IMG/VR virus record: IMGVR_UViG_3300017782_000007
Span: 22,836-86,835 of that record
Strand: one strand, 5' to 3'
DNA: 64,000 nt
Source of the DNA: a virus
In this document: positions 13,324 to 34,142 of the stretch, piece by piece
How positions within the stretch are numbered: the first letter of the stretch is position 1
Layout of the letters: the number at the start of each line of letters is the position of its first letter
Translations under genes and position numbers: made by a program
The notes under the pieces: generated by a model
What the model was told of the DNA's origin: nothing
Databases searched by the model: none
What the model saw: the letters and a program-made list of their open reading frames with translations, nothing else

Positions 13324-13490
13324 GCCTGATCGTGATACCATCCTAAGTAACTGGAGTATCACCCTTATCTTGAGACGTTCAAAGAATTACTACTCAAGAG
13401 AATGGAAGCTGAAAGAGAGTCAGCAGCATAGTAACGGATTAATAGCGTGCTATGTCGAAATTAAAGGTGCGAATCCTTCATCAGGCACTA
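13324..13490 (+). ncRNA. Expanded tRNA-like RNA (acceptor + T-arm enclosing four hairpins)
   Basis: GCCTGAT/ATCAGGC 7-bp stem; AAAGG-TGCGAAT-CCTTC T-like arm; ends A-CTA. Confidence 0.5.
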
Positions 13491-13508
13491 TTCGTGAGAT
13501 AATTTGTT

Positions 13509-13538
13509 AAGGGGAGCATTAGTGCTCCCTTATTTTTT
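13509..13538 (+). terminator. Intrinsic terminator
   Basis: GGGGAGCA-ttag-TGCTCCCT then T-tract. Confidence 0.7.
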
Positions 13539-13556
13539 CAACCTAAAAAGATTAAT

Positions 13557-13715
13557 ATGAATATCATAAAACAATCTAAACTCTGGTGGAATAAACTTCC
13601 ATTAGAGGATAAACTCTATCAAATCTCAGGAACTACTATGACAGTAGCTAGTATAACTGAGACGCAAGTTAAGCAATTGTATTTGCTTGCGAGAGGACCA
13701 CAAGAAAGAAATTAA
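13557..13715 (+). CDS. Small hypothetical protein (52 aa)
   Basis: MNIIKQSKLWWNKLPLEDK...; below track cutoff; typical start context. Confidence 0.55.
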   Translation: MNIIKQSKLWWNKLPLEDKLYQISGTTMTVASITETQVKQLYLLARGPQERN

Positions 13716-13732
13716 TTTACTCAACCTTAAAA

Positions 13733-14179
13733 TTGACAAACGTGAGAGATTTAAAAAGATTAGCAATCATAGTATTCCCACTCTTATCTGTATTATTATA
13801 CTTGCTAGGCCAGAATGAAGCTGATAAGTATGATGAAGCATCCTATCAATTGATTGAGACTAAGAAAGAAGTTAGAGAACTTCAGAAGTCATTAGATATC
13901 AATGAGGAGATGCTTACTGAAGAAATAGAGAAAACAAGAGCTCATCAAATAGCTTTTGAACACATCAGACAACCAGAAGACCAACTATACTACATGACAT
14001 TCTTTAATACTTCGGACGAAGTAGAGATGTTTGTGGAAGGTACATTCTATAATCCTGCTGAAAAAGGATTAAAAACAATTGATATATCCCCAGATATGGA
14101 GGAAGAAATGAAAGTATACTCTAAGTTCTTCAAGGAATTAGAATACGAAATAACATATTCTCATACTCTTGGGGAATAA
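13733..14179 (+). CDS. Membrane-anchored coiled-coil protein
   Basis: N-terminal TM helix; TTG start. Confidence 0.65.
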   Translation: MTNVRDLKRLAIIVFPLLSVLLYLLGQNEADKYDEASYQLIETKKEVRELQKSLDINEEMLTEEIEKTRAHQIAFEHIRQPEDQLYYMTFFNTSDEVEMFVEGTFYNPAEKGLKTIDISPDMEEEMKVYSKFFKELEYEITYSHTLGE

Positions 14180-14352
14180 AATATGATGTTCGTTTAATTG
14201 GGGGAGCAGAACTAGTCTCCCCTTTTTACCTGTTCCCCCAACAGGTTCGACATGTACATCTGAATTGATTACAATTGGGTTTTATTGATATATGGTAGAA
14301 GGGGGAGTATTTATACTCTCCCTACTTTAAGTTAAGAAAAATGCGTCAGGAA

Positions 14353-14403
14353 TTCCCACAGGTTAAATAACTGTAACCTCATTTGCGTGAGGTGTGGGAA
14401 CTA
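14353..14403 (+). ncRNA. Three-way-junction motif, copy A
   Basis: TTCCCACA GGTT-AAAT-AACT GTAA CCTCA-TTTGCG-TGAGG TGTGGGAA CTA. Confidence 0.65.
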
Positions 14404-14421
14404 ATCAAAATACCTATTACA

Positions 14422-14661
14422 ATGAAAAAAAGAAATATTTTATCGGTACTCTTATATTTATGGTTATCTTTCTCTTGCTTGTACTTCTTTGCAGTACTTA
14501 AAAGAGCACATGATGACATTGATAAGAATTACCACATTAAACTTGAAGAACAAAGAGTTTTAAAAGACTCTATTAAATTATTAAAAAAAGAAATTTACGA
14601 TGAAACTAGAAGGAATAATTATCGGAATTCTCCTCCTATCCTTGATGGGAGCGGGGATTAA
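14422..14661 (+). CDS. Small TM and coiled-coil protein
   Basis: Likely start MKKRNIL; TM helix. Confidence 0.6.
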   Translation: MKKRNILSVLLYLWLSFSCLYFFAVLKRAHDDIDKNYHIKLEEQRVLKDSIKLLKKEIYDETRRNNYRNSPPILDGSGD

Positions 14662-15064
14662 TAGTATATATACTCAGTATGAAAACCATATCCCTGAGTA
14701 TACTTACACGTCTCCTGCTATTGAAGCAGATACAGTTGACCGACTAGCGGAATTGCGTAAGAGATTTGAACCTCTACATAATAATCGCTATGACTTCAAC
14801 ATGCGAATGTGGCTAAGGGATAACCCTAATACTACATATGAATTAGCAGAAGCTCATAGAGTGATGCTATGGAAGAAATACTCAGGCTATTCCAAGCCAA
14901 TGAAAGGATATTCTGGTACATATAATCAGGAAACTAAGAGATATGAACCAACAATACTTAGCGAACTTAGAAAAGAGCCTTCATTCATTGAAGAATATGC
15001 TCAACGTACAGCACCTATAGAAACCCCTGAAACTATTATTGAAATTAAAATCGTACACAGATGA
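14600..15064 (+). CDS. Membrane-anchored hypothetical protein
   Basis: N-terminal hydrophobic helix. Confidence 0.65.
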   Translation: MKLEGIIIGILLLSLMGAGINSIYTQYENHIPEYTYTSPAIEADTVDRLAELRKRFEPLHNNRYDFNMRMWLRDNPNTTYELAEAHRVMLWKKYSGYSKPMKGYSGTYNQETKRYEPTILSELRKEPSFIEEYAQRTAPIETPETIIEIKIVHR

Positions 15065-15228
15065 GAATTATTATAATTCTATGTATCTGGGTATACTTTG
15101 TGATAAGCTTCGGCTGTCCAAAGTCAACAACTCTCCCCTCAGCAGAGTTACAAGGAGCAATAGACATATCTTTGTCACTAATCCTAGTCGGATTATGTTT
15201 GCACGGGTATGCTAAAAAGAATATGTGA
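15061..15228 (+). CDS. Small two-TM protein (55 aa)
   Basis: MRIIIILCIWVYFVISFGC...LSLILVGLCLHGYAKKNM; ATGA overlap with upstream stop. Confidence 0.55.
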   Translation: MRIIIILCIWVYFVISFGCPKSTTLPSAELQGAIDISLSLILVGLCLHGYAKKNM

Positions 15229-15310
15229 TAGGTTGAACGATGGGAGGTACTCAAGTAATTGGGTGCTTCCCACTTTAACAAAGAACTTTTCATGCGTTTG
15301 TTTTAATCTG

Positions 15311-15342
15311 GTGAGACAGCTTAGCGGCTGTCTTACTTTTTT
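15311..15342 (+). terminator. Intrinsic terminator
   Basis: GTGAGACAGC-TTAGCG-GCTGTCTTAC then T6. Confidence 0.7.
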
Positions 15343-15377
15343 CCCTCGTCATTAGCGTGACACAAAATTGTTTTAAG

Positions 15378-16136
15378 ATGTTAGAATACTTAAAAAAAAT
15401 ACGACCTTTCCATGTAATCAACGTAGTGTTAGATTACTTGGTGGAATCTAAATACATTCAAATATATTCTGCAATGTGTTTATTGGTTGGAATGTATGTA
15501 ACCACTATGGTTGCATTTAATACAATCACTTATATAGCTGGCTTGGAAGTACTTCCTAAATTAGCCACTACTACTGAAACGACAACGATTATTGATTCTC
15601 CGAAGAAATTATCTTCTATGGCCAAGCCAGAAAGAGAATACGACAGCAACAAAGGAACAAAGAATGCTACACCTTATTACTTGAAAGAGATGTCAGAAGT
15701 GGCAATCAAGGAACAAGATAAATTTGGTATACCTGCTAGTATTACGTTAGCTCAATATCACCTTGAATCAGGTGTAAGGGCAGATAAACCACCTTCAGAC
15801 CTAGCAGTTGAAGATAATAACTGGTTTGGAATGAAATATACTGATAACTTCTATGCATTTCTTAAGAAAAGAGGAATAGTGATAAGTAGAGGAGAGAAAA
15901 GATGCAACAGAAGAGGTAAAGATTGTGCTAATTATGCTGTATTTGCTAGTAGATGGGAATGTTTTAGAGCTAAGTCTCTACTACTTACCAACTCAAACTA
16001 CAGTAGAATTAAAGGAGATACGTACATTGATTGGGCTAAGGGATTAAAGGAGTATGGCTATGCTACTGACCCCAATTATGATAAGAAGTTAATAAAAATA
16101 GTGGAAAAGTTTGGCTTAGCCAAATACGATTCATAA
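15378..16136 (+). CDS. GH73/FlgJ-type peptidoglycan glucosaminidase with TM anchor
   Basis: GIPASITLAQYHLESG, NNWFGMK, GYATDPNYDKKL motifs; TM helix near N-terminus. Confidence 0.88.
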   Translation: MLEYLKKIRPFHVINVVLDYLVESKYIQIYSAMCLLVGMYVTTMVAFNTITYIAGLEVLPKLATTTETTTIIDSPKKLSSMAKPEREYDSNKGTKNATPYYLKEMSEVAIKEQDKFGIPASITLAQYHLESGVRADKPPSDLAVEDNNWFGMKYTDNFYAFLKKRGIVISRGEKRCNRRGKDCANYAVFASRWECFRAKSLLLTNSNYSRIKGDTYIDWAKGLKEYGYATDPNYDKKLIKIVEKFGLAKYDS

Positions 16137-16165
16137 AGAAACGTTTGTTCATAGTAGAGAGGGTA

Positions 16166-16197
16166 TCCCTGGCCAGTAACATGGTCGGGGACTTTTT
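16166..16197 (+). terminator. Intrinsic terminator
   Basis: TCCCTGGCCA/TGGTCGGGGA stem then T5. Confidence 0.6.
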
Positions 16198-16214
16198 ACA
16201 CAATCACATAAATA

Positions 16215-16409
16215 ATGGCACAAAGAACAAGTAAAAAAGAAATATATAACCGAGCATGGAATGATGCTATCATATCTATACTCGAACACCTTCTTGAAGA
16301 GGGACAAGGAATAGATTTATCTCATTTCAACCGAAAGGAAGAGATTAGAGAGAAAAAATACAAAGAATTTGAAGAACTAGAGAAGGAATTAAGGCGTAGG
16401 CATACGTAA
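16215..16409 (+). CDS. Hypothetical protein
   Basis: 64 aa ORF. Confidence 0.6.
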   Translation: MAQRTSKKEIYNRAWNDAIISILEHLLEEGQGIDLSHFNRKEEIREKKYKEFEELEKELRRRHT

Positions 16410-16586
16410 CTGACCAGCTCTGTTCTTTAGGGTACAGAGCAAATCTACAGTCCACGGGCTGTAGAGTTAGGATCGTGCAACGCGTACGGCCAAGGCTACA
16501 ATGACTGAGATTTGATAATAACATCCGAGTACCAGGGAGAGTCTAGTTTAGGCTCTCCTTATTTAAAAACTTAAAAATAGTTATTT

Positions 16587-16940
16587 ATGATACATGCATC
16601 ATTAGATTATTCCCCGAAAAAGCTACAGAATGTTGATGAAGAAGAGATTATTAAGCTATTAAGATGCTTAATATTTGCAGACAGGGTATACTCTGCACGT
16701 ATATTAGTTATGACTATATATGGTGTTGATTATACTGAGTCAATCTTCATTGTCCAGCAGACAAAAACATTATTGGGGAGTAAAGCTCCTGATTTAAAAT
16801 ACAAGAAATTCATCTCTCCCAACAAGTTTAACGACTTATTAAAGGCGATAGATAACCCTAGGTTCTATGATTTCCCTAACCGAGACTCATTAGAATACAA
16901 GGAAAAAACTATTAAAGATATTACTGGCCATGGAAGATAG
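16587..16940 (+). CDS. Hypothetical protein
   Basis: 117 aa ORF. Confidence 0.65.
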   Translation: MIHASLDYSPKKLQNVDEEEIIKLLRCLIFADRVYSARILVMTIYGVDYTESIFIVQQTKTLLGSKAPDLKYKKFISPNKFNDLLKAIDNPRFYDFPNRDSLEYKEKTIKDITGHGR

Positions 16941-17100
16941 CAGTTTAGTATTCTTACCAGTATCTGTAATGTCCTATAGATTGAGAAGAGCTCTCTTTTC
17001 AAATAGGACATACGTATCCGGAGATCGTTACATCATTCCATTGGAGATGTTAATGATCAATGGTAGTGCCTACATGGAAGTATTAGTCTTAATGAAATAG
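16930..17100 (+). CDS. Small hypothetical protein (56 aa)
   Basis: MEDSSLVFLPVSVMSYRLRR...; fills the gap before the tRNA-like element. Confidence 0.5.
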   Translation: MEDSSLVFLPVSVMSYRLRRALFSNRTYVSGDRYIIPLEMLMINGSAYMEVLVLMK

Positions 17101-17105
17101 CCCTA

Positions 17106-17213
17106 GGTATAGCAGGTTTGCTATTGGTTGTATTGTTAATGTTGAGAGTTGGTTACTCTTCAACAACTTTACTAAATGCCAATAATTAGGTTCAATTCCT
17201 TTTTATACCGCTA
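17106..17213 (+). ncRNA. tRNA-like RNA with a long hairpin in place of the anticodon arm
   Basis: GGTATAG/TTATACC stem; AGG-TTCAATT-CCT T-arm; internal TATTGG..GTTGAGAGT/ACTCTTCAAC..CCAATA; ends G-CTA. Confidence 0.5.
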
Positions 17214-17230
17214 ACCAAACCATTGTTATC

Positions 17231-17719
17231 ATGAACAGACCACCGTTTCAGTATCTTTTCTTTGCCACTCTCTTAATGATGGCAGCTTTAGTCTTACATC
17301 TTAATGAAGATAAACCTGTATCAGTAGAGAAAGAGAACTTAGAAGTCCCTCAAGAATTAATAGATTGTAGATCAGCTCGTTTAGATGCTGAACAAGAATT
17401 AGTAAATGAGAGACTTAAGACTCAAACATTAAGAGAAGAATACGATGAGGCCGCTTTAGAACTACAAGTATTTGATAGTTCTCTAGTAACATTATTCAGT
17501 AGCTTTACGAGGCTTAAAGATGCTCAAAGGTATCTTAAAAAGCTAAATAAAGGATCAGATTACCTTATATATTTAATAGTACTCTATGAAGAGTATGAAT
17601 TAGATGTATACCCTAATCAAATAACTTCTGGCGGGAGAAAGTTAGAGAATCCTACAATTAAAGCAATTGATTATAAAGATGTTCAAATCCAAGGAATTGG
17701 TATTACGTATCCACATTAG
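17231..17719 (+). CDS. Membrane-anchored coiled-coil protein
   Basis: N-terminal TM; C-terminal part weakly SPOR-like (SFTRLKDAQRYLKKL). Confidence 0.65.
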   Translation: MNRPPFQYLFFATLLMMAALVLHLNEDKPVSVEKENLEVPQELIDCRSARLDAEQELVNERLKTQTLREEYDEAALELQVFDSSLVTLFSSFTRLKDAQRYLKKLNKGSDYLIYLIVLYEEYELDVYPNQITSGGRKLENPTIKAIDYKDVQIQGIGITYPH

Positions 17720-17930
17720 GTGGGTAGTAATTTTTATTATTGTTCAAATTATTATCTGCATCCTCGCCGGTGCAGGTATAGCACACTATGAGAAAAGCAG
17801 AAGCAATGATGGTGGTAGAAAGATCATTCCCAAAAGACCTAAGCTGGTTCAGGTACAATCAGTATTCGACAAAAGAACTCCTAGAGTTCTCAGCAAATCT
17901 TTTAGATCATCTATCATCAAGAGGAGTTAA
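17679..17930 (+). CDS. Small TM protein (overlaps next ORF)
   Basis: WVVIFIIVQIIICILAGAGIA TM helix. Confidence 0.45.
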   Translation: MFKSKELVLRIHIRWVVIFIIVQIIICILAGAGIAHYEKSRSNDGGRKIIPKRPKLVQVQSVFDKRTPRVLSKSFRSSIIKRS

Positions 17931-17979
17931 TATAACTGAGGTAGCAGATAGACTTGAGGGGGTCATATCTGCGCACTAA
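17788..17979 (+). CDS. Hypothetical protein
   Basis: 63 aa ORF ending at a C(TTCG)G hairpin. Confidence 0.5.
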   Translation: MRKAEAMMVVERSFPKDLSWFRYNQYSTKELLEFSANLLDHLSSRGVNITEVADRLEGVISAH

Positions 17980-18189
17980 GGCTTCGGCCTTGGTGTTCCT
18001 TAGTATATATTAAAATTAAATAAAAGTCGCTTAGAACGCCTTAAAATGGCTTATACGATATAACCACACTTACAAGACGACATTATATATCCCAAAAACT
18101 TATAGTTGTCTGTTTGCTGGTAAGGGGGACAGTTGTGAGATGCTGTCCTCCTCTTTAAGAAATTACTTAATCTTCTAAATAATACTCTC

Positions 18190-18783
18190 ATGAAGAATGT
18201 ACTATTAAAATTCAGTAACAATAAGGTATACTTTGTTACTAATGAAGGATCTACTTTTAAACTCGTATCCAATACCAAGGATCCACTATTGGCCACAGCC
18301 AAAAAAGGAAGAGGAAAGCCGTTCGCGGTAATACTCGATGTTCCTTTGCCAGAGTCTACAACAATGACTCCGGTATCTACTGGTCTTATACTCCCTATCA
18401 GTAATGTTAGGGAGAAAGAACATATTGAAGCTTATGCTGATGATGGTGTATACTATGCTAAACAAGGTATTCCAATAGGTATACTATTAGATTGCACAGT
18501 AGTACCATCAAGATCCAAGAACCGATTCAATGTTGTGGATTATAAGATTCATCAACATAAGATTGGATTTACTCATGGTAAGCTAGGAGCATTGATAACA
18601 TTAATTAATAATGTAATTAAACCTAGACTGACTGTGAATAAGAGAGATGATTACGATATAATTGTTGATTTGATGAATGCTAGAAAGTCTCCTTTTGGGA
18701 GGAAACTATCCAAAGCACAGACAAAGACGTTCAAAAAAATTTATTTAAGAAGAGTCAAGGAGTTTCTCACTCCTAAAGGTTAA
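18190..18783 (+). CDS. Hypothetical protein
   Basis: 197 aa ORF. Confidence 0.7.
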   Translation: MKNVLLKFSNNKVYFVTNEGSTFKLVSNTKDPLLATAKKGRGKPFAVILDVPLPESTTMTPVSTGLILPISNVREKEHIEAYADDGVYYAKQGIPIGILLDCTVVPSRSKNRFNVVDYKIHQHKIGFTHGKLGALITLINNVIKPRLTVNKRDDYDIIVDLMNARKSPFGRKLSKAQTKTFKKIYLRRVKEFLTPKG

Positions 18784-18817
18784 TGGTTATTTGGGGGTTC
18801 GATTCCCCCAAACCTTC
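18776..18817 (+). ncRNA. Anticodon-less mini-tRNA
   Basis: AAGGTT-A ATGGTTATTT GGGGG-TTCGATT-CCCCC A-AACCTT. Confidence 0.55.
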
Positions 18818-18826
18818 TAATCAAAA

Positions 18827-19144
18827 TTGAATGATATGAGAGGAATAGAAAAGAAAAAAAACTATGTATCAACCTGGTTAACTCCGAGAGTGAGAGCTAA
18901 ACTCAAAGAGAACCCACAAGTCGAGCAATTGCTACTTGCTGGGGATTACCTAGGTATAAACCAGTCAAGAGTATTTCAAGTGTTCCCTGTTGGAACACAA
19001 AGAGATACGATATTCTCAGAAGATGAAATGAGAATATACTTGGAGGAACTTAAATCCTTGGCTAGGGGATTAGTAGTAGAAGTATCCTCGCTTTCTAGAT
19101 GCGGTTTCTATACTACGTCCATGCTCAGGAGCCAACCCGTGTAA
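18827..19144 (+). CDS. Hypothetical protein
   Basis: 105 aa ORF (TTG start, or ATG 18836). Confidence 0.6.
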   Translation: MNDMRGIEKKKNYVSTWLTPRVRAKLKENPQVEQLLLAGDYLGINQSRVFQVFPVGTQRDTIFSEDEMRIYLEELKSLARGLVVEVSSLSRCGFYTTSMLRSQPV

Positions 19145-23022: not shown

Positions 23023-23623
23023 GAAAATTTATCTGCCTGAACTAGACATTCAAGCACAAGATAACAAATTACATTGGAGAGAAATTGCCTCAAAAGGATC
23101 AGGATTCCCATCATCTATGTGGAAAACTGATAGCACCTTTGGTACAACTCCTGAAATTACATTTGGATTTGAAATGGGAGCTGACTACCCATTAATGTAT
23201 TTTCGTTCACCTTTAGTCAGAGATATTGCTTTTGAGAAACTAAGACATGCTAAGGAGTATAGCAAAGTGCGATTGGGGAGAGATGACTTTTTTAAGTCAG
23301 TCACTTCTCGTGATAAAAATGCTATGGTATCCTCAATGCAGAACTTAGACCTCAAAGATATCTTTCAAGAGCACATCAATAAACGTTTTGGAAGTCTTTC
23401 CGGGTTGAATAAAGAAGTTCATATGGACAAACCATTGACCAATGAGCTATTTAACTCAATTATCAAGGACAAGTTTGATGCTAGTCAAGGTATAAACAAA
23501 CGAGGACTAGTAGTCCAACTTTGTAATGCTTTGGAAAAGCCTAAATTCCCTGGCTCGGAGAAGATTCCTAGTGAAATGTTTTGGTGGTACTTTATTTCTA
23601 ACCTTAAAACAATTAAAGCATGA
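23015..23623 (+). CDS. Hypothetical protein
   Basis: 202 aa ORF overlapping both neighbours. Confidence 0.7.
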   Translation: MNKKIYLPELDIQAQDNKLHWREIASKGSGFPSSMWKTDSTFGTTPEITFGFEMGADYPLMYFRSPLVRDIAFEKLRHAKEYSKVRLGRDDFFKSVTSRDKNAMVSSMQNLDLKDIFQEHINKRFGSLSGLNKEVHMDKPLTNELFNSIIKDKFDASQGINKRGLVVQLCNALEKPKFPGSEKIPSEMFWWYFISNLKTIKA

Positions 23624-25027: not shown

Positions 25028-25080
25028 GACTCAGTCTAATGGATGGCGAAAGCCTGTAGGTTCGATTCCTACCTGAGTCA
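25028..25080 (+). ncRNA. Anticodon-less mini-tRNA
   Basis: GACTCAG TCTAATGGAT GGC-GAAA-GCC T GTAGG-TTCGATT-CCTAC CTGAGTC A. Confidence 0.7.
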
Positions 25081-25099: not shown

Positions 25100-25327
25100 A
25101 TGTTCGCAATAGCAACAAAAAAGAAGGTTTATATCACTCCAGAACACTATGAATTGTACGAAAAAGAATTCCAAGCCGGAACCTATGTACTTTATCATAA
25201 AACTGGTAAATATAGAACTTTCGTAGGGATTGTAGGGATCCCTCACACAGCTTGTCCCACTAAGACGGTGTTAGTATCGCCTTTAAGAGAAACATATTTC
25301 GTCACTTTAAATCATAAATATCAATGA
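25100..25327 (+). CDS. Hypothetical protein
   Basis: 75 aa ORF coupled to the MoxR gene. Confidence 0.65.
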   Translation: MFAIATKKKVYITPEHYELYEKEFQAGTYVLYHKTGKYRTFVGIVGIPHTACPTKTVLVSPLRETYFVTLNHKYQ

Positions 25328-26343
25328 CAAAAGAATTTTTAGACAAATTAAACAAGATTGATTTATCTCAAAGATTTATCAAGTCTGAACGATTTACCCG
25401 AGCCTTTGTATCAGCTCTCTCATTGGGAGAACATGCCATGTTTTATGGTAGAGGGGGACACGGTAAATCAGAGATGGCTATGGAAGCTTTTGCACAAGTT
25501 GGTATTGATCCATTTGTACTCTCCTTCCATGAAAATACTACAATTGAAGAATTATTTGGAGGGATTGATCCTGAAGAATGGAAGAAAACAGGAAAGATTA
25601 AATATCTTTTTGAGAACTCGATGTTTAACCACCAGTATGTAATTGCAGAAGAAGCATTTGATGCTCCTGGAATCGTATGGGCTTCTATTAAAGATGCTTT
25701 AACTTCAGGACATGTTAGATTTGGTAATGATACATTCGAAATCAAAACTAAGTCTATCTTATTCTTAACAAACAGATCTAAGGAAGAAGTAGTTGAGGAT
25801 AACTCTGTAGAAGCATTTATGCAAAGAATTGTATTCAATTTAAAAGTTGAATGGGATTCATACACACCTGAAGACTACTCTGATTTATTAGAGTGTGTCT
25901 TTAAAGATAGAAATGAACAATTTGCTACTATCATCTCAGATATGTCTGCTGTTTCAGAGGAAGATTTTATCTCTCCAAGAACATGTGTTAAGGCATATAA
26001 AGCATATATTACCTTAGGGATAGATTGCTTACAAGAGTTTGAAGGGTTTTCAGTTGATAAAGTTGAAAGAATGAAGGATAGACTAGTTAAATTAGAGCAA
26101 ATCAAAACTCAAAGAGAGAGATTAAATGCTTTTGGAGCTACTCTTCATGAAATTCGAAAAGGGAGTATCAAATTCAGTCAGGAAGCAACAATGAAAATCA
26201 GATTATTAAAAGAATTTCAATCTAAATTGAAAGCTTTGAAAATCTCTGATAGTTTATTTCCTGAGAAAAGTGAAATGATGAGAGATGTAGATGCATTGAG
26301 AAAGAAATTAGTTGAGTTATCAATAAATCTTCCTAAATCATGA
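25324..26343 (+). CDS. MoxR/RavA-family AAA+ ATPase
   Basis: GRGGHGKSE Walker A, TTIEELFGG, IAEEAFDA Walker B, LTN sensor; adjacent vWA gene. Confidence 0.85.
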   Translation: MTKEFLDKLNKIDLSQRFIKSERFTRAFVSALSLGEHAMFYGRGGHGKSEMAMEAFAQVGIDPFVLSFHENTTIEELFGGIDPEEWKKTGKIKYLFENSMFNHQYVIAEEAFDAPGIVWASIKDALTSGHVRFGNDTFEIKTKSILFLTNRSKEEVVEDNSVEAFMQRIVFNLKVEWDSYTPEDYSDLLECVFKDRNEQFATIISDMSAVSEEDFISPRTCVKAYKAYITLGIDCLQEFEGFSVDKVERMKDRLVKLEQIKTQRERLNAFGATLHEIRKGSIKFSQEATMKIRLLKEFQSKLKALKISDSLFPEKSEMMRDVDALRKKLVELSINLPKS

Positions 26344-27950
26344 GAGCAACAATACCTTTAAACGGATATATTCCACCTGATGAAGATGATATTAGATATT
26401 TTTGTAATCAAGAGAATTACAAACATAAGGTATCAACTGAATTAATACAAGAACTTTGTAATTTCTATGTTGGAGGCATGGCTAGCTATGTTCCTACTTC
26501 TACAGTAGATAAAGAAGATGTAAAATATGTATCTAATGTACATAGATTACTTGAGAATCTTCCTTCTAATACCTTTAAAGGTTCTCCCTTGGCTAAATCT
26601 GTTCAAACAGCAGTGGCTATTAATTCTCTAAACAACAGTATTCTTAAAAAGAAACAACGTAGAGCTGTTAGAATGGACAGAGAAATTGCAGAATTACAAA
26701 GGAGACAACAAGAGTATCAAGATTTGTCAGACTCTGGTGATTATAGCCCAGAGGAAAGTGATGATTTCAGATCTTCCAAGAGTGATATAAAAGAATATGA
26801 AGAGGACATAAGAGATAAGAAAAAGAAGTTAGATAAAGAGATAGAAAAACTTTTAAAACTTCTGGAATCTGAAGATAATCCTATGGAAGATTGTAATGAT
26901 CCTGAAGGTTTAGCTGATGCTATTAGCCAATTAGCCTCTGATTGCGATCTTCTTGAACAAGCAGAAAAAGAAAAGAAAGAGAAAAGTAAGAAGGGTGAAG
27001 ATGGCCAAGAAGGAGAGGGTGAAGGAGAGGGGGAAGGAGACGGTGAAGGAGAAGAAACAGAAGGTACTCCTATGAATTCTGATGAGAGATTACATGATAA
27101 ACATCCAGAAGACATCATGGTTAGTGCAGAGGCAATGGGAGTAAATATAATCAATAGTGATTTTAGTCCTATTAAATTCTCTGAAGTAACTACTGAAGAA
27201 GCTAACATCTTGAAGAAACTATCTGTAGTTAACTCTTTCAATGGTAGTATAGCTGGCGAAGCTAAGATTAAGAGGAAAAGAAAAGTCTCTTCTAAGAAAA
27301 GAGGTAAACTTAAAATGGAATCTTATAAGCAAGTTAACCAAGCCAGCTTCGTTGAACGTATGATGCCTGGATTCGATAAGAAGTTCATCCAAAAAGATGT
27401 ACTAATTAAAGATAAGTATGTATCTGAGGTTTGTAAGCAAACTTTAGTACTACTTATAGATGATTCAGGTAGTATGAATTCTGAGTGGAAGATTGGGTGG
27501 GTTAAGGCATTAGTATTAAATAGATTAACAGCTGTTATGAAAGGAGACGCTACTCTTTATATCTGTACTTTTGAAGAAGAATTAGATCCTAACTGGGTTA
27601 AGGTAGGTACTAAGGCCCAAGCCAAAGATTACTGGAAATTATTTGATAGACAAGTTGGATTCAATAGAGGTAATACTGATATTGAGAAGGCTGTCACACA
27701 TACAATAGAGCAAATAGACAATGGTAAGCTTATCGGAGTTGATTATGATGATACTGCTACTATTAGTCTGAAGAAAGAAAGGCCACAAATATGTGTTATA
27801 AATGATGGCCAAGATTACATTGATAAAGATTATTCTCCTAAGATAATAACTCATGGTTTTATTTTAGGCAGAGATAATATAGAGATGAAAATCATGTGTG
27901 AACGATCTGGAGGTATATACCATAGAATCGGTCACGTTGACATTTATTAA
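26340..27950 (+). CDS. vWA (MIDAS) domain protein, MoxR partner
   Basis: LLIDDSGSM, RGNTDI, VINDGQD; (GE)n acidic linker. Confidence 0.88.
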   Translation: MRATIPLNGYIPPDEDDIRYFCNQENYKHKVSTELIQELCNFYVGGMASYVPTSTVDKEDVKYVSNVHRLLENLPSNTFKGSPLAKSVQTAVAINSLNNSILKKKQRRAVRMDREIAELQRRQQEYQDLSDSGDYSPEESDDFRSSKSDIKEYEEDIRDKKKKLDKEIEKLLKLLESEDNPMEDCNDPEGLADAISQLASDCDLLEQAEKEKKEKSKKGEDGQEGEGEGEGEGDGEGEETEGTPMNSDERLHDKHPEDIMVSAEAMGVNIINSDFSPIKFSEVTTEEANILKKLSVVNSFNGSIAGEAKIKRKRKVSSKKRGKLKMESYKQVNQASFVERMMPGFDKKFIQKDVLIKDKYVSEVCKQTLVLLIDDSGSMNSEWKIGWVKALVLNRLTAVMKGDATLYICTFEEELDPNWVKVGTKAQAKDYWKLFDRQVGFNRGNTDIEKAVTHTIEQIDNGKLIGVDYDDTATISLKKERPQICVINDGQDYIDKDYSPKIITHGFILGRDNIEMKIMCERSGGIYHRIGHVDIY

Positions 27951-28350: not shown

Positions 28351-28359
28351 CTACTCCCT

Positions 28360-28406
28360 AAACCCTGGAACTGAGTTCGTTATGTTGTTCGCGCAACACA
28401 GGGTTT
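28360..28406 (+). ncRNA. Three-way-junction motif, copy B
   Basis: AAACCCTG GAAC-TGA-GTTC GTTA TGTTG-TTCGCG-CAACA CAGGGTTT. Confidence 0.65.
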
Positions 28407-28429
28407 CTTTATTCACCAAATCTTCTTTT

Positions 28430-28666
28430 ATGAAAAATACTCAATTACCATCTACTATTGTATTAGTAGTAATTTCCTTAATATATGTAACAATAGGAAC
28501 ATATATCTTTATCCTCTCAATTAAAGAGACAAATATGATCTCTTTTTTAATTAGTGGAATATTTTGGACAGGATTTTACGAGTCTATGATAGAACTAAGA
28601 TACAGGCTCTATAGAGCTGTAAGAGATGGAAAATCAATGAATTTGATTGAAAGGAAATGGAAATAA
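28430..28666 (+). CDS. Small two-TM protein
   Basis: Likely start MKNTQL at 28430. Confidence 0.6.
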   Translation: MKNTQLPSTIVLVVISLIYVTIGTYIFILSIKETNMISFLISGIFWTGFYESMIELRYRLYRAVRDGKSMNLIERKWK

Positions 28667-28723
28667 CATAGTCGGGCACTTTTCGGAGTGACCCGCTATA
28701 TTTTTTAACTTTAAAATTTTATT

Positions 28724-29068
28724 ATGAAAAATTTATTATTATTAATCTGTATATTATTTTCATTTGTTGGTCAAGCTCAAAAAACACCATTTGAGAAAGA
28801 CATTGCTTATGACCAATACAAGTATGAAAAACATTTAAAAAAAGCAGACAATTCTTACGATACTGTAGTAGGTGGATTAATAATCACCACTTTAGGGGTA
28901 GTAGGACGTAGCGCTGTGAAATGGAATCCTAACTATCGATCAAAGGAAATCAAGGCACTATCTAATGGATTAACCTTAATTGGTTCTTCTATGGTGGTTA
29001 TAGGTACTTATAATTTTTTTGATAATAAGAGGAGTGCGAGGAAGATTGAGAAGAAATACAATTTTTAA
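28724..29068 (+). CDS. Exported or membrane protein
   Basis: Bacteroidota-type signal peptide MKNLLLLICILFSFVGQA-Q and two hydrophobic segments. Confidence 0.7.
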   Translation: MKNLLLLICILFSFVGQAQKTPFEKDIAYDQYKYEKHLKKADNSYDTVVGGLIITTLGVVGRSAVKWNPNYRSKEIKALSNGLTLIGSSMVVIGTYNFFDNKRSARKIEKKYNF

Positions 29069-29073
29069 AATTA

Positions 29074-29123
29074 TTCCGTGGACCAAATGGTCGTAACTTC
29101 CTTTGCGGGAAGCACGGAAACTA
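29074..29123 (+). ncRNA. Three-way-junction motif, copy C
   Basis: TTCCGTG GACC-AAAT-GGTC GTAA CTTCC-TTTGCG-GGAAG CACGGAA A-CTA. Confidence 0.65.
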
Positions 29124-29335
29124 TACACATCTATATTATTAGGACTGGATATCTCATTTTGTATTTGAGTATTACGCTAATAGATGCATTGTAAGCCACG
29201 AAATGTGGATTCTGGATAGATTGTCTCTCTAGTCCAGAAAGAGGGAGGAGAAGTCCTTAAAACGCCTTGTAGCAGGATTTTCAACCCTGTGTGACGGTGA
29301 TGACCTCAAAATGCTTTAATATTAAGCACACTAAA

Positions 29336-29415
29336 ACGTCAAAGAGTGTATGTGGGTTCGAATCCCATCTTCCGTGCTGGAAGTATGCCAATTGGAAGAG
29401 CAACTTATTATCCGT
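29336..29415 (+). ncRNA. Circularly permuted tRNA mimic (YrlA Y-RNA-like)
   Basis: T-arm GTGGG-TTCGAAT-CCCAT, closed acceptor hairpin CTTCC-GTGCT-GGAAG, TA, D-arm TGCC-AATTGGAA-GAGCA, closing GAGT/ACTT. Confidence 0.5.
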
Positions 29416-29688
29416 AATTATTCCGTATTGTTAAAGGTAACTATTGTAGAAACAGTCTCATTAGCTGTGGAACAAGATAGAGTTTAACATTAGAATATTA
29501 ATCGAGAGGGTAGAAAGCCCAGTAATAGAGTGACACCTAATCTATAGATAACGATTCAACCTTAGCGGGCTTGATGTTTTATCTTTAGCGCATCAAAACA
29601 AAACAGCTCACTGCTAGTAGCTAAGCGATTCTGATATAATCGTGAAACCTGTGCAATTCAGGAAGTGATATCAAAGACATTTTTTAAC

Positions 29689-29754
29689 GGGGGTCTATAG
29701 TAAGAGCTCGTTAGAGTACCGGACTTTTAATCCGGGGGAGACTATATATTCCCA
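29689..29754 (+). ncRNA. T-armless tRNA-Lys(UUU)-like element
   Basis: D-like GCTC-GTTA-GAGT; perfect anticodon arm CCGGA-CTTTTAA-TCCGG; closed by TATAGT/ACTATA and GGGGGT/ATTCCC; no T-loop. Confidence 0.55.
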
Positions 29755-29767
29755 TTACTTTAATTAC

Positions 29768-30205
29768 ATGAATTACACAAAAATTAGGAAACCAAGACGC
29801 AAAATGAAACTTGTAGAACCTTGGTTACAAAGTATTATTAAAGACAATGAATTCGTAGTATTACGTGATAAGCGCACTAAAAAAGCGTTACATGTAAGTT
29901 ATACGGAAGACGGTCTAAAGTGGGCCTTGGACCCACGGACATCCAAATCTCTTTATTTCAAAGATGCTTATCTTTCCCACGGCCGTGTTGGTGGTGAGGG
30001 CTGGAACGGTTTGTTCCGTAAAGAGAGAGATCCAAATACCATAGTCGAAAAGTTCATACCAATGAATCACGTAAGGACCCGCAAAGATGGTATCGAGTAT
30101 GTCGATACAGTCAACCAATCCTTAGAATTCAAAGCAGTGGATAGAGCTTTGCGAATGTTAACCAAATCTCAGACGAGATTACTTGATAATTTTTCTGATA
30201 ACTAA
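29768..30205 (+). CDS. Hypothetical protein
   Basis: 145 aa ORF inside the RNA cluster. Confidence 0.7.
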   Translation: MNYTKIRKPRRKMKLVEPWLQSIIKDNEFVVLRDKRTKKALHVSYTEDGLKWALDPRTSKSLYFKDAYLSHGRVGGEGWNGLFRKERDPNTIVEKFIPMNHVRTRKDGIEYVDTVNQSLEFKAVDRALRMLTKSQTRLLDNFSDN

Positions 30206-30214
30206 ATTTATACT

Positions 30215-30286
30215 CTTGTTAAGACGTAAGGTGCGGCAACATGTTTGAAACACATGTCTGTTCAGGTTCGATACCTGGTGCGAAGA
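30215..30286 (+). tRNA. Degenerate tRNA-Phe(GAA)-like
   Basis: Anticodon arm CATGT-TTGAAAC-ACATG; T-arm TCAGG-TTCGATA-CCTGG; acceptor only 5 of 7 paired; poor D-arm. Confidence 0.45.
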
Positions 30287-30293
30287 GTTAATA

Positions 30294-30347
30294 GTACTGG
30301 GAGTATAACTATTGTGACATAATAGTGAACTAGGGTTCGAATCCCTT
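30294..30347 (+). pseudogene. Acceptor-less tRNA-Val(GAC)-like remnant
   Basis: GTACT-GGG-AGTAT, CTATT-GTGACAT-AATAG, AGGG-TTCGAAT-CCCT; no acceptor stem found. Confidence 0.4.
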
Positions 30348-30497
30348 GCCGAAATAAATTTAGTTTGAAGTATCTTGAATGACGTATTTAATGCTTAGGG
30401 CTCAGCAGAGATAGACGAAGAATACCTTCTCTCCTAGATCTGGAGGACGTACCCTAGGTAGCCTATGGCTTCCTTTAAATAATTCAATTTTTTATTT

Positions 30498-30839
30498 GTG
30501 AATAGCTTAAACCTGAAGACGCGTTTTAGTCAACTGGATGTGAAGTAAAGAGTACGACACAAATTGGATTACCTACACCGAGCGGTAGAATTCATCCATA
30601 CCAGAGAAACTATACGTATAACGAGCGAGGAGCCTCTTCTAAAAATAGCACCTGTCCGTTTGACAGAAGAAATAACATCATAGGTTTTATATTGATGGCT
30701 AAGCCAACCAACTGGGTGTTGGAGCTTAGTTTATATAGATTATATTGTAGGTAGTGGTGGTAGGCGACTATACCCTCAAGCCAGGGGTGAAGTTGATACA
30801 ATATATTCTCACTATAAAGTCAATAATTTTGATGTTCAC
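30498..30839 (+). ncRNA. Long structured RNA (about 340 nt), unassigned
   Basis: No plus-strand ORF in track; terminal GTGAATA/TGTTCAC stem and at least six internal helices. Confidence 0.45.
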
Positions 30840-30891
30840 GTAGAAGATAATCAAGTCTGAGAGTTAGATTTTTATTACTGTAAATTAGTTT

Positions 30892-31485
30892 ATGAAACAA
30901 ATTATATTGAATTTTGTCTTATTAATAGCATTAGCAGCAACTAATGTTGGAGTTTGGCAGAATACTACTGTTATAGAATCAACTGATTCTGAATTACGAT
31001 CGAGTCTCACCTTGGTAACCCAAGAATTAGAATGTGTAGAAGAAGAACTGTCTTCGTTGAAAATGGATTACGAAGATTTCAAGTTAAAAGATACCACATT
31101 ACTAGAGACTTTTGGCCTAGAGGAGCTTTCATCGCCAGATGAGAAGAACTCTTGGAAGAAAATGGATGGAACTTTTGTCTCCCTGTTAAAGGAAGCGGAA
31201 GCGGTATCCGGATTTAGATGGCGAATCAACTCTGGTTATAGAACTTGTTCACACAACAAGAACTTAATTAAGAGAGGATACAAAGCCGCTAAAAATAGTT
31301 GGCATATGGACGGAAATGCCGTAGATATTTCTGCATCTACATCTGCCTATAGGAAACTTATTCTTAACTCATTAAAACATATTGGAATAGTGAAGGGTAT
31401 AAAGGTATACCCAGCACATATTCATGTTCAATGGAAAAACGATCATGATTTATGGAATCAAAAAGATTTAATTGCAATGAAATAG
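30892..31485 (+). CDS. Peptidase M15 (YcbK/MepK-like) Zn endopeptidase with signal anchor and coiled coil
   Basis: INSGYRT...NSWHMDGNAVD...AHIHVQ. Confidence 0.85.
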   Translation: MKQIILNFVLLIALAATNVGVWQNTTVIESTDSELRSSLTLVTQELECVEEELSSLKMDYEDFKLKDTTLLETFGLEELSSPDEKNSWKKMDGTFVSLLKEAEAVSGFRWRINSGYRTCSHNKNLIKRGYKAAKNSWHMDGNAVDISASTSAYRKLILNSLKHIGIVKGIKVYPAHIHVQWKNDHDLWNQKDLIAMK

Positions 31486-31920
31486 AAGGGACCTCAGGTC
31501 CTTTCATACCGCCTTAGTTATTGACTGTAAAAGTGTGATAACTAAGGGTGTGTCCCGCTTAAGAGCGAAAAAATAGTTATCGTATAACGGTAACGGTCAG
31601 TCCAAATAGTTATTAGTTTCTGTACACAATACGCTAATACTATTATTAGACTCTTGGATTCCTTAATCCCTGAGACAATTCTGAAGGTGACCACAAAGAT
31701 TGTGTAAGTGAATGATCCTCACTAAAAATATAGATCGTATTAAAATGAAAGATTCATTGGCTAGGCCAGTAAGTTATCTTAGTGTTACATTATACTTATG
31801 GAAGCAATTATCATACCCATAACGGGCCATTAAGTATTTTCCCTACATAACGAATACCACTGCTCTCGGTGCAGGATTGGTTAGGTACATAACAAGCTAC
31901 TAATTACTGAATCTGATTTT
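31486..31920 (+). ncRNA. Long structured RNA or leader upstream of polA, unassigned
   Basis: ORF-free about 430 nt; helices AAGGGACC/GGTCCTTT, CCTTAGTTATT/GATAACTAAGG, GTTATCGT/ACGGTAAC and others. Confidence 0.4.
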
Positions 31921-31934
31921 TTAACTATTAAAAT

Positions 31935-33980
31935 TTGAAATACCTTTTAAACAAAAACACCTACCAAGTAAGTGGATTTGAGTCAATCTCCTACAGTGAA
32001 ATGTTAGAGAAATTGAGTTCAATGGAGGTAATATGCGTCGATACGGAAACTAGACCCAAGAGCGAATTTATGTCAATCCCAATGGCAGGTCTAGATCCAC
32101 ACTTATCTGAAATTGTTATGTGTCAAATAGGAGATGAACACGATCAGTTCATCATAGATGTTAGACACGAAGACATCATGGGTCTTAAATCAATCTTAGA
32201 AGAGCCTAAGGTTGTTAAGATATTGCAAAACGCCAAGTTTGATTATAAAATGCTCTTAACCAATTTTGGTATAAGAGTTAATAACATCAGAGATACGATG
32301 ATTCAAGAGCGAGTGCTAACAACTGGTGATATTTCAGCCAGAGCTTCGTTAGAGGCCTTAGCCAAGAAATATGTCGGATTTGAATTTGCGAAAACCAATC
32401 AGTTAAACCTCTTTGAAAAGCCACCAGAGGTAGTCCTAACTAAGAGTGTGAGGACAGAATTTAAAAACGTGGGAAGTCGACCTTTTACTAAGCGACAGTG
32501 TGAATACGGTGTAATGGATATAATACTACCGATTCAGATAGACAGGGAACAACAATTAGACATCAAATCCCAAGATTTGACTAGGATTGCGAAACTCGAG
32601 AATGACTTTATTCATGTAATGGGTGAAATCGAAACAAATGGATTTTACTTAAATGTTCCTAAATGGAAAGAATTATATGAACAAAGACTAGAGGAGTATC
32701 AATTAGCTAGGAAAGATTTAGTTGATTACATTTTTGATAATAAGATGGAAGGATTATATAAATGGAAAAGTAGTTTATTCGAGAGCGACAAACTATTAAA
32801 CATTAATCTTTCCTCAAGCCACCAAGTTGTTGAGCTACTTAATGTCTTAGGTATAGATACTAAAATCTTAGATAAAAAGAAATCAAAAAAACAAGGACAC
32901 GACGTCTTCAAAGACAGTATCGAAGAACGTGTTCTCAAAAAGTACAAAAAGAGGTTTAAGATAGTACCTCTTTACCTGCACTTTAAGCAATTAGAGAAAG
33001 CAGTAACTACATATGGCATTGATTTTTTAAATCATGTCTCGCCCAGGACGGGGAGAGTTCACTCCTCATATCGACAAATCATTCGTAGTGGAAGAATGGC
33101 TTCTAGTAGGCCTAATCTTCAAAACCTGCCGAATGGATCAAAACTCCCTGGGTATCGGGAGTGTTTTACTAATTCAAAACCAGGCACCAAACTTATTGTA
33201 GCTGATTACTCTGGACAGGAGACAGCAATCTTAGCTGACAGAGCTCAAGAGACCGCCATGATTGATTTTTTGGTCAATCAAGGAGGAGATTTTCACTCAC
33301 ACACTGCTAAACGCATGTTTGGAGTCAATGTGAGTAAGACAGAAAATCCACATCTTAGGCAAATCGCTAAGTCGATAAGCTTCGGGTTAGCATATGGTAT
33401 GTCCGCACATAAATTAGCAACTGATTTCGAAATTACTATAGAGGAGGCTGAAGACTTTATCGATAAGTATTATGAAGCATACCCCGAATTAAATAAATAT
33501 TTCAAAGATCAACGGAGGAAGGCTCTTGAGAATGGCTTTATTCTCATTGACCCTGTAGTAGGACGCAAGTCTTTCCTTGTAGGCATTCATGACAAGTACC
33601 TTGATGCAAAGGCTGTTATAGATGAATATAGGGAAGCAGAGGCATTAAAGAAAGTTCCGAAGCAAGTCTGGTCAGATTTTTATTCGGCTAAAGGAAGGAT
33701 AGAGAGGTTGTCGCAAAATTTACCCATTCAGGGTACTGCGGCAAATATGACAAAGGTAGCCGCGATTCGGTTTCAGAAGTGGATAAAGGGGAGTAAATTG
33801 GAAGAATTTGTTAAGATTGTCAACATGGTTCACGATGAAATCGTTGTAGAATGCCATGATGATTATGTAAGTATGTGTAAGGATGAATTGGAAAAACAAA
33901 TGATACTAGCTGGCGGAATATTTTGTAAAACTGTTCCAATGAGAGTAGATGCTCAAGTTGGTCCTTTCTGGGATCACTAG
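31935..33980 (+). CDS. polA: Family A DNA polymerase with 3'-5' exonuclease
   Basis: ExoI VDTET, ExoII QNAKFD, SGRMASSRPNLQN, motif A ADYSGQE, motif B RQIAKSISFGLAYG, motif C VHDEIV. Confidence 0.97.
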   Translation: MKYLLNKNTYQVSGFESISYSEMLEKLSSMEVICVDTETRPKSEFMSIPMAGLDPHLSEIVMCQIGDEHDQFIIDVRHEDIMGLKSILEEPKVVKILQNAKFDYKMLLTNFGIRVNNIRDTMIQERVLTTGDISARASLEALAKKYVGFEFAKTNQLNLFEKPPEVVLTKSVRTEFKNVGSRPFTKRQCEYGVMDIILPIQIDREQQLDIKSQDLTRIAKLENDFIHVMGEIETNGFYLNVPKWKELYEQRLEEYQLARKDLVDYIFDNKMEGLYKWKSSLFESDKLLNINLSSSHQVVELLNVLGIDTKILDKKKSKKQGHDVFKDSIEERVLKKYKKRFKIVPLYLHFKQLEKAVTTYGIDFLNHVSPRTGRVHSSYRQIIRSGRMASSRPNLQNLPNGSKLPGYRECFTNSKPGTKLIVADYSGQETAILADRAQETAMIDFLVNQGGDFHSHTAKRMFGVNVSKTENPHLRQIAKSISFGLAYGMSAHKLATDFEITIEEAEDFIDKYYEAYPELNKYFKDQRRKALENGFILIDPVVGRKSFLVGIHDKYLDAKAVIDEYREAEALKKVPKQVWSDFYSAKGRIERLSQNLPIQGTAANMTKVAAIRFQKWIKGSKLEEFVKIVNMVHDEIVVECHDDYVSMCKDELEKQMILAGGIFCKTVPMRVDAQVGPFWDH

Positions 33981-34099
33981 TTACAGTTATGTTTAGAAGC
34001 TCTTACAGCGTATGTAAGATACCTTTACGCATTTAAACAAGATAATCTATGTATATTAAAATTACTTGGTGGGGCGAACTTCGGTTCGTTCCACTATAT

Positions 34100-34142
34100 T
34101 CTTGGTATGGTAGTAATTAAGGTTCGATTCCTTAGCCAAGAA
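34100..34142 (+). ncRNA. Anticodon-less mini-tRNA (43 nt)
   Basis: TCTTGGT ATGGTAGTAAT TAAGG-TTCGATT-CCTTA GCCAAGA A. Confidence 0.7.

Follow-up and report, generated by a model that had tools for sequence, protein, structure and literature searches.

Why would a phage without a recognisable transfer RNA (tRNA) gene carry fragments of the tRNA fold between its genes? The question is raised by a 64,000-nt stretch of DNA (the window), bases 22836-86835 of the 86.8-kb IMG/VR virus record IMGVR_UViG_3300017782_000007, which is judged 85% complete. A preliminary description of this stretch had proposed that at least 12 intergenic elements on the transcribed strand keep parts of the tRNA fold in place of real tRNAs. 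All twelve were located (positions are those of the window), the four weakest being recognised by resemblance only. RNase P, RNase Z and the CCA-adding enzyme measure the 12-bp stack that the acceptor and T stems form in a tRNA. The answer that we tentatively favour, at slightly less than an even chance, is that most of these elements may be cis-acting punctuation signals in polycistronic plus-strand transcripts, to be read by host RNase P and RNase Z.

Folds, strand and placement of the elements

Standard searches agree with the notion that real tRNAs are absent. ARAGORN, which had been expected to fail on these elements, called no tRNA or transfer-messenger RNA (tmRNA) gene in the window or in the whole contig, and produced noise only at relaxed settings. 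No Rfam family reached its gathering score in the contig, where the best tRNA score was 20.2 bits, at 29697-29762, against a cut-off of 29 bits. With no cloverleaf called by either route, a canonical tRNA identity was rejected.

Three of the elements, referred to as class II, are three-way junctions. Their outer stem has 7-8 bp and encloses a 4-bp hairpin, the linker GTWA and, stacked on the outer stem, a second hairpin of 5 bp with the loop TTYGCG. The first, II-a (14353-14400, plus strand), has an 8-bp P1 stem, a 4-bp P2 hairpin, the linker GTAA and a 5-bp P3 hairpin with the loop TTTGCG, and folds with a z-score of -3.6. II-b (28360-28406, plus strand) has the loop TTCGCG and the linker GTTA, and II-c (29074-29120, plus strand) the loop TTTGCG and the linker GTAA, with z = -3.7. 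The preliminary description had listed three 7+5 bp three-way junctions, and these three are indeed covarying paralogues: all 50 stem cells pair (50/50), 17 of 17 base pairs are kept, 13 of the 17 are changed on both sides, and none of 500 shuffles matches this. A class II covariance model gives the three copies 63, 58 and 62 bits, respectively, their reverse complements 10-16 bits and the rest of the genome at most 11.2 bits, and the G-U pairs are paired on the plus strand only. Class II is a real structured RNA that is read from the plus strand. The model found no match in 24 loci of relatives. Two matches from a degenerate pattern scan of IMG/VR were rejected as chance, their pairing being broken.

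Class I consists of three anticodon-less acceptor plus T-arm units, as had been claimed. Each has a 6-7-bp acceptor, a 10-21-nt insert that always contains ATGG, and a 5-bp T-stem with the loop TTCGATT, stacked on the 3' strand of the acceptor. I-a (18776-18816, plus strand) combines a 6-bp acceptor and a 10-nt insert containing ATGGT with the T-arm GGGGG-TTCGATT-CCCCC. In I-b (25028-25080, plus strand) a perfect 7-bp acceptor and a perfect T-arm with the loop TTCGATT flank a 21-nt insert, which holds ATGG and a GGC-GAAA-GCC hairpin; its minimum-energy fold is the proposed class I fold (z = -2.6). The minimum-energy fold of I-c (34100-34142, plus strand) is likewise the class I fold, with a 7-bp acceptor that includes one G-U pair, an 11-nt insert containing ATGGTA and the T-arm TAAGG-TTCGATT-CCTTA. 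Class I stems differ in sequence between copies and pair perfectly, and the claim that stems vary and pairing is kept holds for both classes.

Two expanded versions had also been described, and both were found. In the first (13324-13486, plus strand), a perfect 7-bp acceptor (GCCTGAT/ATCAGGC) encloses about 125 nt of inner hairpins and a T-arm-like hairpin with the loop TGCGAAT, which is stacked on the 3' strand of the acceptor; the 472-nt non-coding region that encloses it (13085-13556) folds at z = -3.1. Because an intrinsic terminator, a 9-bp GC-rich hairpin with a T run (13510-13537, plus strand), trails 25 nt behind, the evidence suggests a stand-alone small RNA gene. The second (17106-17210, plus strand; z = -2.4) has a 7-bp acceptor (GGTATAG/TTATACC), inner hairpins and a weak T-arm with the loop TTCAATT and three good pairs.

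If one mismatch at most is allowed, the T-arm consensus GGTTCGAATCC is found at six sites in the contig, at 13466, 18796, 25059, 29355, 30334 and 34121, all on the plus strand between 13466 and 34131; shuffles predict 0.40 sites, and 0 of 100 reach six. A seventh T-arm lies at 30262. Across eight T-arm-like hairpins, 90% of stem cells pair and the invariant letters are the universal tRNA T-arm positions GG-T-C-A-CC; the conserved G53, T54, (T55), C56, A58 and C61 are invariant in all eight, save for T55 in the copy at 13463. An equal frequency of similar folds in shuffled intergenic sequence had been named as telling against the elements. In 6.3 kb of plus-strand intergenic DNA, a stem of 7 bp carrying a stacked hairpin of 5 bp, with no more than 30 nt inserted, occurs seven times, compared with 0.70 +/- 0.79 in 200 dinucleotide shuffles, none of which reaches seven, and with a single occurrence on the minus strand. 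By this count the objection does not hold. Counted genome-wide with coding DNA included, the bare 7+5 fold is not enriched (24 vs 18.8 in shuffles).

The placement of the elements relative to the genes is also regular. The 17106 element and II-c start 5 nt past the upstream stop codon, I-b and II-b start 9 nt past it, I-a overlaps it with its acceptor, and II-a and I-c are preceded by upstream hairpins. Six elements end 19-28 nt before an ATG, at 14422 (II-a, 21 nt), 17231 (17106 element, 21 nt), 18836 (I-a, in frame), 25100 (I-b, 20 nt), 28430 (II-b, 23 nt, the likely start of the next gene) and 34170 (I-c, 28 nt), two of these six assignments replacing longer open reading frame (ORF) calls that start inside an element. 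This agrees with the statement that most elements sit 10-30 nt before a start codon. II-c opens a 650-nt non-coding stretch. The genes downstream of the elements could be assigned to no family.

Where a tRNA would carry CCA, all eight acceptor-type elements have a C at the second base past the stem, followed by T in seven of the eight, and none has CCA. The trailers, which had been reported as N-CTA or CTC for several elements, are A-CTA in II-a, II-c and the 13324 element (where A is the discriminator), G-CTA in the 17106 element, A-CTC in I-b and A-CAT in I-c, with CTA and T-CTT making up the set. I-a and II-a have an 11-letter trailer in common, CTAATCAAAAT. An intrinsic terminator identity was rejected for classes I and II: their trailers (CTAATC, ACTCAC, ACATTA, CTTTAT, ACTATA) lack a T run, whereas genuine terminators nearby have one.

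Proposed punctuation of transcripts and competing explanations

The punctuation reading applies to all of class I (the mini-tRNAs), to all of class II and to the element at 17106; the one at 13324 would be a variant made as a small RNA and ended by a terminator. Each element would present a coaxial stack of 12-13 bp, formed by a 7-8-bp "acceptor" under a 5-bp hairpin, and in class I the canonical T-loop and the D-loop-like ATGG would form an elbow. Host RNase P would cut at the 5' foot of the stem, and RNase Z at or one base past the discriminator, a cut that the N-C-T/A trailer in place of CCA would permit. The upstream message would be released by these cuts, and the downstream message would begin with an A/T-rich leader of about 20 nt ahead of its ATG. 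A search for phage-encoded tRNA enzymes found no CCA-adding enzyme and no RtcB in the contig; a search for Rnl1 gave no match in the contig and none in the control genomes either. The contig also lacks an integrase, and host enzymes would therefore have to act. The suggestion that these are cassettes for host tRNA processing agrees with their location in spacers on the sense strand, the length of the stack, the N-C trailers, the approximately 20 nt to the ATG and the start of two RNA contigs described below. The folds, covariation, enrichment, strand, stop-start placement and trailer motif are observed; what we infer from them is that the RNA is cut, by which enzymes, and with what effect, if any, on stability or translation.

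The RNA evidence consists of assembled contigs, in which transcript ends, strand and level cannot be read and uncovered parts carry no meaning. Two RNA-type runs, each from a different study, have a contig whose first base is exactly 29122, one base beyond the discriminator of II-c, and cutting by RNase Z has been reported at this distance (PMC1920247). The non-coding stretch that follows (29122-29767, plus strand; fold z = -0.46) is over-represented in the RNA-type libraries, with a depth of 12-19 that is the highest in both runs; the other pieces listed for these runs have depths of mostly 2.5-6, up to 19. One metatranscriptome contig stops at 17212, 3 nt beyond the end of the 17106 element, another spans 30287-30481 over two degenerate units (see below), and several element-bearing spacers are covered by RNA-library contigs. 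The contig ends at 29122 and 17212 are weak hints and not mapped ends.

Several observations weigh against the punctuation reading. The assembled contigs, the only RNA data, contain no mapped RNA end, cleavage or CCA addition, one of the two contigs that start at 29122 has 30 unexplained letters at that end, and two of the RNA-type runs are only guessed to be RNA. All of the covariation is between paralogues and not orthologues, no close relative having been found. Class II lacks a T-loop, the acceptor of I-a is weak, and the base at -1 is not conserved. No gene directly follows II-c or the 13324 element, and the gaps 29120-29767 (z about -0.5) and 30206-30891 (z = -0.2) are overall not more structured than shuffles. 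Finally, the leader motif TAACCTTAAAA could be a promoter, which would place the elements at the 3' ends of transcripts.

One rival explanation is that the elements are never cut, and that they insulate or stabilise the messages by their structure, their likeness to tRNA being an accident of descent. Such elements would keep the initiation region unpaired, block 5' or 3' exonucleases or aid ribosome loading. The fixed spacing of 19-28 nt before starts is as expected from this idea, as is the lack of a T-loop in class II, and with no Shine-Dalgarno sequence, initiation probably needs an unstructured leader. It leaves unexplained, however, why class I has the universal T-loop letters and an ATGG that mimics the D-loop, why both classes have a 12-13-bp stack of tRNA length, and why the N-C-T/A trailer is conserved both here and in other phages. 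We regard an insulating role as unlikely.

A second rival holds that the elements are decaying tRNA genes without a present function, and it draws on the four elements in the long non-coding gaps. The best defined of these is a tRNA-Lys(UUU) fragment (29689-29753, plus strand), which corresponds to the anticodon element without a T-arm of the preliminary description. It comprises a D-arm and an anticodon arm (loop CTTTTAA) closed by a 6+6-bp helix, and ends 14 nt before the ATG at 29768. Its fold has a minimum-free-energy frequency of 0.65 (z = -2.0), its score with the tRNA model is the 20.2 bits given above, and over its 32-nt core (29705-29736) it matches the tRNA-Lys of T4-like phages at 94% identity. 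A module that had been described as a permuted tRNA lies at 29336-29415 (plus strand) and consists of a closing stem, the T-arm GTGGG-TTCGAAT-CCCAT, the stacked hairpin CTTCC-GTGCT-GGAAG, TA and a D-arm-like AATTGG. The order of its parts resembles that of the tRNA-like module of YrlA, a bacterial Y RNA, but the match is weak: the YrlA model gives 19.5 bits against a gathering score of 69, and the fold (z = +0.2) is no better than that of shuffles. Its T-arm/acceptor 21-mer is found in many ordinary phage tRNAs of differing identity and is therefore uninformative on origin.

The remaining two are the degenerate tRNAs of the preliminary description, both within 30239-30356 (plus strand). The Phe-like unit has an anticodon-type hairpin (loop TTGAAAC) and the T-arm at 30262, and the Val-like unit a D-like hairpin, a hairpin with the loop GTGACAT and a T-arm at 30331. 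T-arms and anticodon-type hairpins are present, but there is no acceptor stem in either unit and the folds are not significant (z about 0). These two units are probably tRNA relics, and for the four gap elements together the more likely view is that they are remains of a former tRNA cluster, now found in abundant non-coding transcripts. Apart from the Lys core, nothing in the gaps 29120-29767 and 30206-30891 was matched by Rfam or blastn.

For the four gap elements, then, decay is likely: the Lys element retains its close identity to a phage tRNA-Lys, the Phe- and Val-like units retain anticodon-type hairpins and T-arms without an acceptor, the gaps that hold them are unstructured overall, and related phages carry tRNA arrays. 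As an account of the whole set it seems improbable. Neutral decay would not keep perfect 7+5 stacks and T-loops in three elements while dropping exactly the D and anticodon arms, nor would it yield three covarying junctions with a non-tRNA loop or fixed distances to stop and start codons, and the fold is tenfold enriched over shuffles.

Alternatively, the elements might act, after release or while still part of the mRNA, as decoys or sponges. They would bind defence nucleases that attack tRNAs (PrrC, RloC, PARIS AriB, retron effectors), enzymes that modify tRNAs, or SmpB, and the outcome would be protection of host tRNAs or a block on host functions. The canonical tRNA-Lys(UUU) anticodon stem-loop, kept in a well-defined fold, is the sole evidence for this beyond analogy or abundance; the analogy is with mycobacteriophage DS6A, whose tmRNA, reduced to the tRNA-like domain (TLD), has been proposed to titrate SmpB (PMC4131195), and the abundance is that of 29122-29768 in the RNA-type libraries. 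Most elements lack the anticodon arm that known anticodon nucleases target, none has the G3-U70 pair that would make it alanine- or tmRNA-like, and decoys would not need an intercistronic layout. A decoy function of the set is quite doubtful. No better prospects are given to a modular toolkit, in which N-C-U-A-tailed 12-bp minihelices of two unrelated loop types would be cut by host RNase P and RNase Z, the released mini-tRNAs and the tRNA-Lys fragment would serve as sponges in trans, and class II would be a new family that enters tRNA enzymes without a T-loop.

The least probable explanation, largely refuted, is that the elements are independent small RNAs of a ribonucleoprotein, for example Y-RNA-like molecules with a Ro60-type partner (the 536-aa VWA protein, with the MoxR ATPase): the YrlA model does align to 29327-29435 with T-arm, acceptor hairpin and D-arm in the right order, and the protein encoded at 26340-27950 is as long as Ro60 and carries a VWA domain at its C-terminus, but the YrlA score is that far below threshold, the contig has no TROVE domain, TROVE is found in 0 of 23 homologues of the VWA protein, all of which are CoxE-type VWA proteins, and its AlphaFold model (pLDDT 77) has long N-terminal helices and, as its 50 best Foldseek matches, VWA/MIDAS-type proteins over about 180-335 aligned columns with no Ro60 among them.

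Should the punctuation reading be correct, a Bacteroidota phage would segment its operons as mitochondria do. Phage T7 segments its messages with RNase III sites. Many unannotated intergenic "tRNA-like" hits in phage genomes would be explained, adding a new feature class for annotation pipelines, and the three covarying junctions without a T-loop would define a minimal shape that tRNA enzymes accept in vivo.

Elements in other phages and the genomic setting

Elements of a similar kind are found in other phages (loci compared are labelled L followed by a number). The 24-letter T-arm and acceptor 3' strand of I-b, together with its 5' strand (31 letters in all), occur exactly in two unrelated phages of higher GC content and about 120-128 kb. 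These phages (L028:3330-3880, minus strand; also L027/L029) have three tandem tRNA-like units in one spacer, none of which is called a tRNA by ARAGORN or Rfam. Two of the three have the exact I-b acceptor and T-arm with differing interiors of 45-46 nt; the repeat GACTCAATGACAGAATGGTTTCTG precedes two of the units, and the middle unit has part of it and a T run at its end. A MAFFT alignment of class I with these units misplaced the 5' strands, and hence no class I model was built. The I-b 24-mer is absent from 185,579 cellular species genomes. Its reading as an attP core was rejected, there being no tyrosine integrase, no copy of the 24-mer in cellular genomes, and many copies, each with a paired 5' strand. 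The exact 3' halves of I-c and of the Lys element have no match in IMG/VR.

Among 80 phage loci gathered through MoxR homologues, 22 acceptor plus T-arm matches are not called by ARAGORN, two of them nested at one site. All are on the gene strand, 21 of the 22 have trailers that start with AC, and many have a D-arm of the tRNA-Leu type without an anticodon arm. Four loci (L067, L072, L098 and L122) repeat the layout seen here: the trailer is AC-T/A, and an ORF of at least 40 codons opens with an ATG 20-27 nt further on. The anticodon-less tRNA-Leu look-alikes of L067-L130 are further characterised by the acceptors AGTCAGG or GATTGAG, the D-arm TGGCGGAATTGGTAGACGC, the T-arm ACAGGTTCGAATCCTGT and interiors of 37-98 nt; they are on the gene strand with AC-starting trailers, and many are 2.5-4.5 kb downstream of the MoxR start (examples are L111:6462-6567, L115:6491-6593 and L098:6596-6703). 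Further loci gave additional acceptor plus T-arm examples. One such element in a phage with a related DNA polymerase (L010:5202-5298) has a 66-nt interior and is not called by ARAGORN.

The phage itself comes from seawater and marine viral metagenomes. For TerL, the identity to the protein of Cellulophaga phage phi14:2 (Crassvirales, Steigviridae) is 34% across 99% of the length, and that to the proteins of gut crAss-like phages is 26-28%; the earlier designation as crAss-like is in this way supported, distantly. In IMG/VR no relative of its DNA polymerase exceeds 34% identity, no close relative came out of a metagenome scan with MoxR, and among 5.8 billion proteins the best homologue of MoxR has 40% identity; an identical MoxR protein is present in a second contig. 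Judged by these comparisons the phage is a singleton, no tested protein having a homologue of more than 40% identity.

Two giant proteins of 1497 and 2881 aa are encoded on the minus strand. The plus-strand block at 10.7-50.6 kb contains small uncharacterised genes, endolysins, a MoxR ATPase with its VWA partner, and genes for a family A DNA polymerase, a primase and a helicase. The MoxR-type AAA+ ATPase and the VWA protein that follows it occupy window positions 25324-27950; the latter, a CoxE/NorD-like protein of 536 aa with a disordered acidic G/E/D repeat (DNA 26992-27051), is a CoxE/NorD-type MoxR partner. A depth peak at 27009-27052 was discarded, as it reflects unrelated reads on the acidic repeat. 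A GroEL-type chaperonin is encoded at window positions 2964-4571 on the minus strand (phrog_5725, E = 3e-142).

Start codons lack a Shine-Dalgarno sequence and have an A/T-rich leader instead, often TAACC(T)TAAAA, 13-18 nt upstream (6 nt in one case), which fits a Bacteroidota host. The motif precedes at least 11 start codons by 13-18 nt, with instances at window positions 12746-12775, 13530-13556, 23590-23619, 28700-28723, 34145-34169, 41700-41722, 43375-43401 and 50055-50080; once it takes the form TTAACTTTAAA, which resembles the epsilon enhancer of T7 gene 10. It could be a translation signal or a phage promoter.

Outside the range of the preliminary description, a possible further 7+5-bp stacked element, as yet unconfirmed, lies at 36438-36474 (plus strand; 7-nt insert, loop AGATAA, z = -2.1), within a 417-nt gap (36414-36830) ahead of the gene at 36831. 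Several perfect hairpins without a tRNA-like signature are found in the non-coding regions 31486-31934 (z = -2.5) and 13085-13323 (part of the larger region with z = -3.1), whose folding is significantly better than that of shuffles.

Comparison with known systems

Phage phi14:2 (L137) is the closest cultured relative by TerL. Its RNA-polymerase genes g065/g066 are on the minus strand, a layout matched here by the two giant minus-strand proteins. It has abundant early non-coding RNAs: those of the early-strand intergenic regions g004-g005 and g005-g006 are above most genes in level, stable and of unexplained function (Drobysheva et al., bioRxiv 10.1101/2020.03.07.982082). ARAGORN finds a tmRNA at 4031-4500, between g004 and g006, that is unannotated in the record and lies in the stretch published as highly transcribed. 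At about 1760-1850, upstream of g003, is a tRNA-like element not called by ARAGORN, with six of seven acceptor pairs and the T-arm GAAGG-TTCGAAT-CCTTC. Phi14:2 differs in that its gaps have no sequence similarity to those described here, and its first 50 kb hold no class I or class II punctuation elements. As a cultured relative with published infection RNA-seq, it makes the wider question testable.

Non-tRNA phage RNAs with tRNA-like ends that are processed by host tRNA enzymes include the T-even species 1 and 2, M3 and C4 RNAs; the T-even ones, which are stable and tRNA-like, are reportedly covered by a 1978 catalogue of Moen, Seidman and McClain. Of the elements, the one at 13324 (162 nt, terminator-ended) is most like these RNAs. 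The T-even stable RNAs, M3 and C4 lie in a tRNA cluster or are antisense, whereas the elements described here occupy intercistronic spacers. RNase P cuts operon mRNAs as well as the phage M3 and C4 RNAs (PMC11143913).

The tRNA-like domain of tmRNA, and the TLD-only tmRNA of DS6A, resemble the elements in combining an acceptor stem with a T-arm and a reduced D-loop and in lacking the anticodon arm. Unlike tmRNA, the elements lack a G3-U70 pair and a tag reading frame, and many copies are present between genes. A tmRNA identity was rejected on the grounds that ARAGORN -m reported none, that RF00023 gave only 15-nt T-arm matches, and that the acceptors have C3-G70 or T3-A70. The YrlA module has its T-arm, looped acceptor and D-arm in the same order as 29336-29415; unlike YrlA, that module scores far below threshold and has no Ro-binding stem, and the contig has no Ro60/TROVE gene.

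No paper describing intercistronic mini-tRNAs in phages was found in the literature searched, and within that literature the statement that such a multi-class set had not been described holds. The closest parallel, together with the mitochondrial tRNA-punctuation model, is found in plant mitochondria, where t-elements were discovered by a screen for GGTTCRANYCC, and cuts by RNase Z and RNase P make mRNA ends (Forner et al. 2007, PMC1920247). RNase Z cuts there at or one base past the discriminator, non-encoded C or CA is added, and simple acceptor-like stem-loops also serve (PMC1920247). Common to both systems are a non-canonical tRNA-like fold, a GGTTCRANYCC pseudouridine arm and a location in transcribed spacers, in mitochondria beside mRNA ends and in the phage beside candidate ones. 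The t-elements are organellar, few and experimentally mapped, whereas the phage elements fall into several classes, known here from sequence and assembled contigs. Unlike t-elements, the phage elements have a fixed gap of about 20 nt to the start codon and an N-C-T/A trailer, and one class of them has no T-loop.

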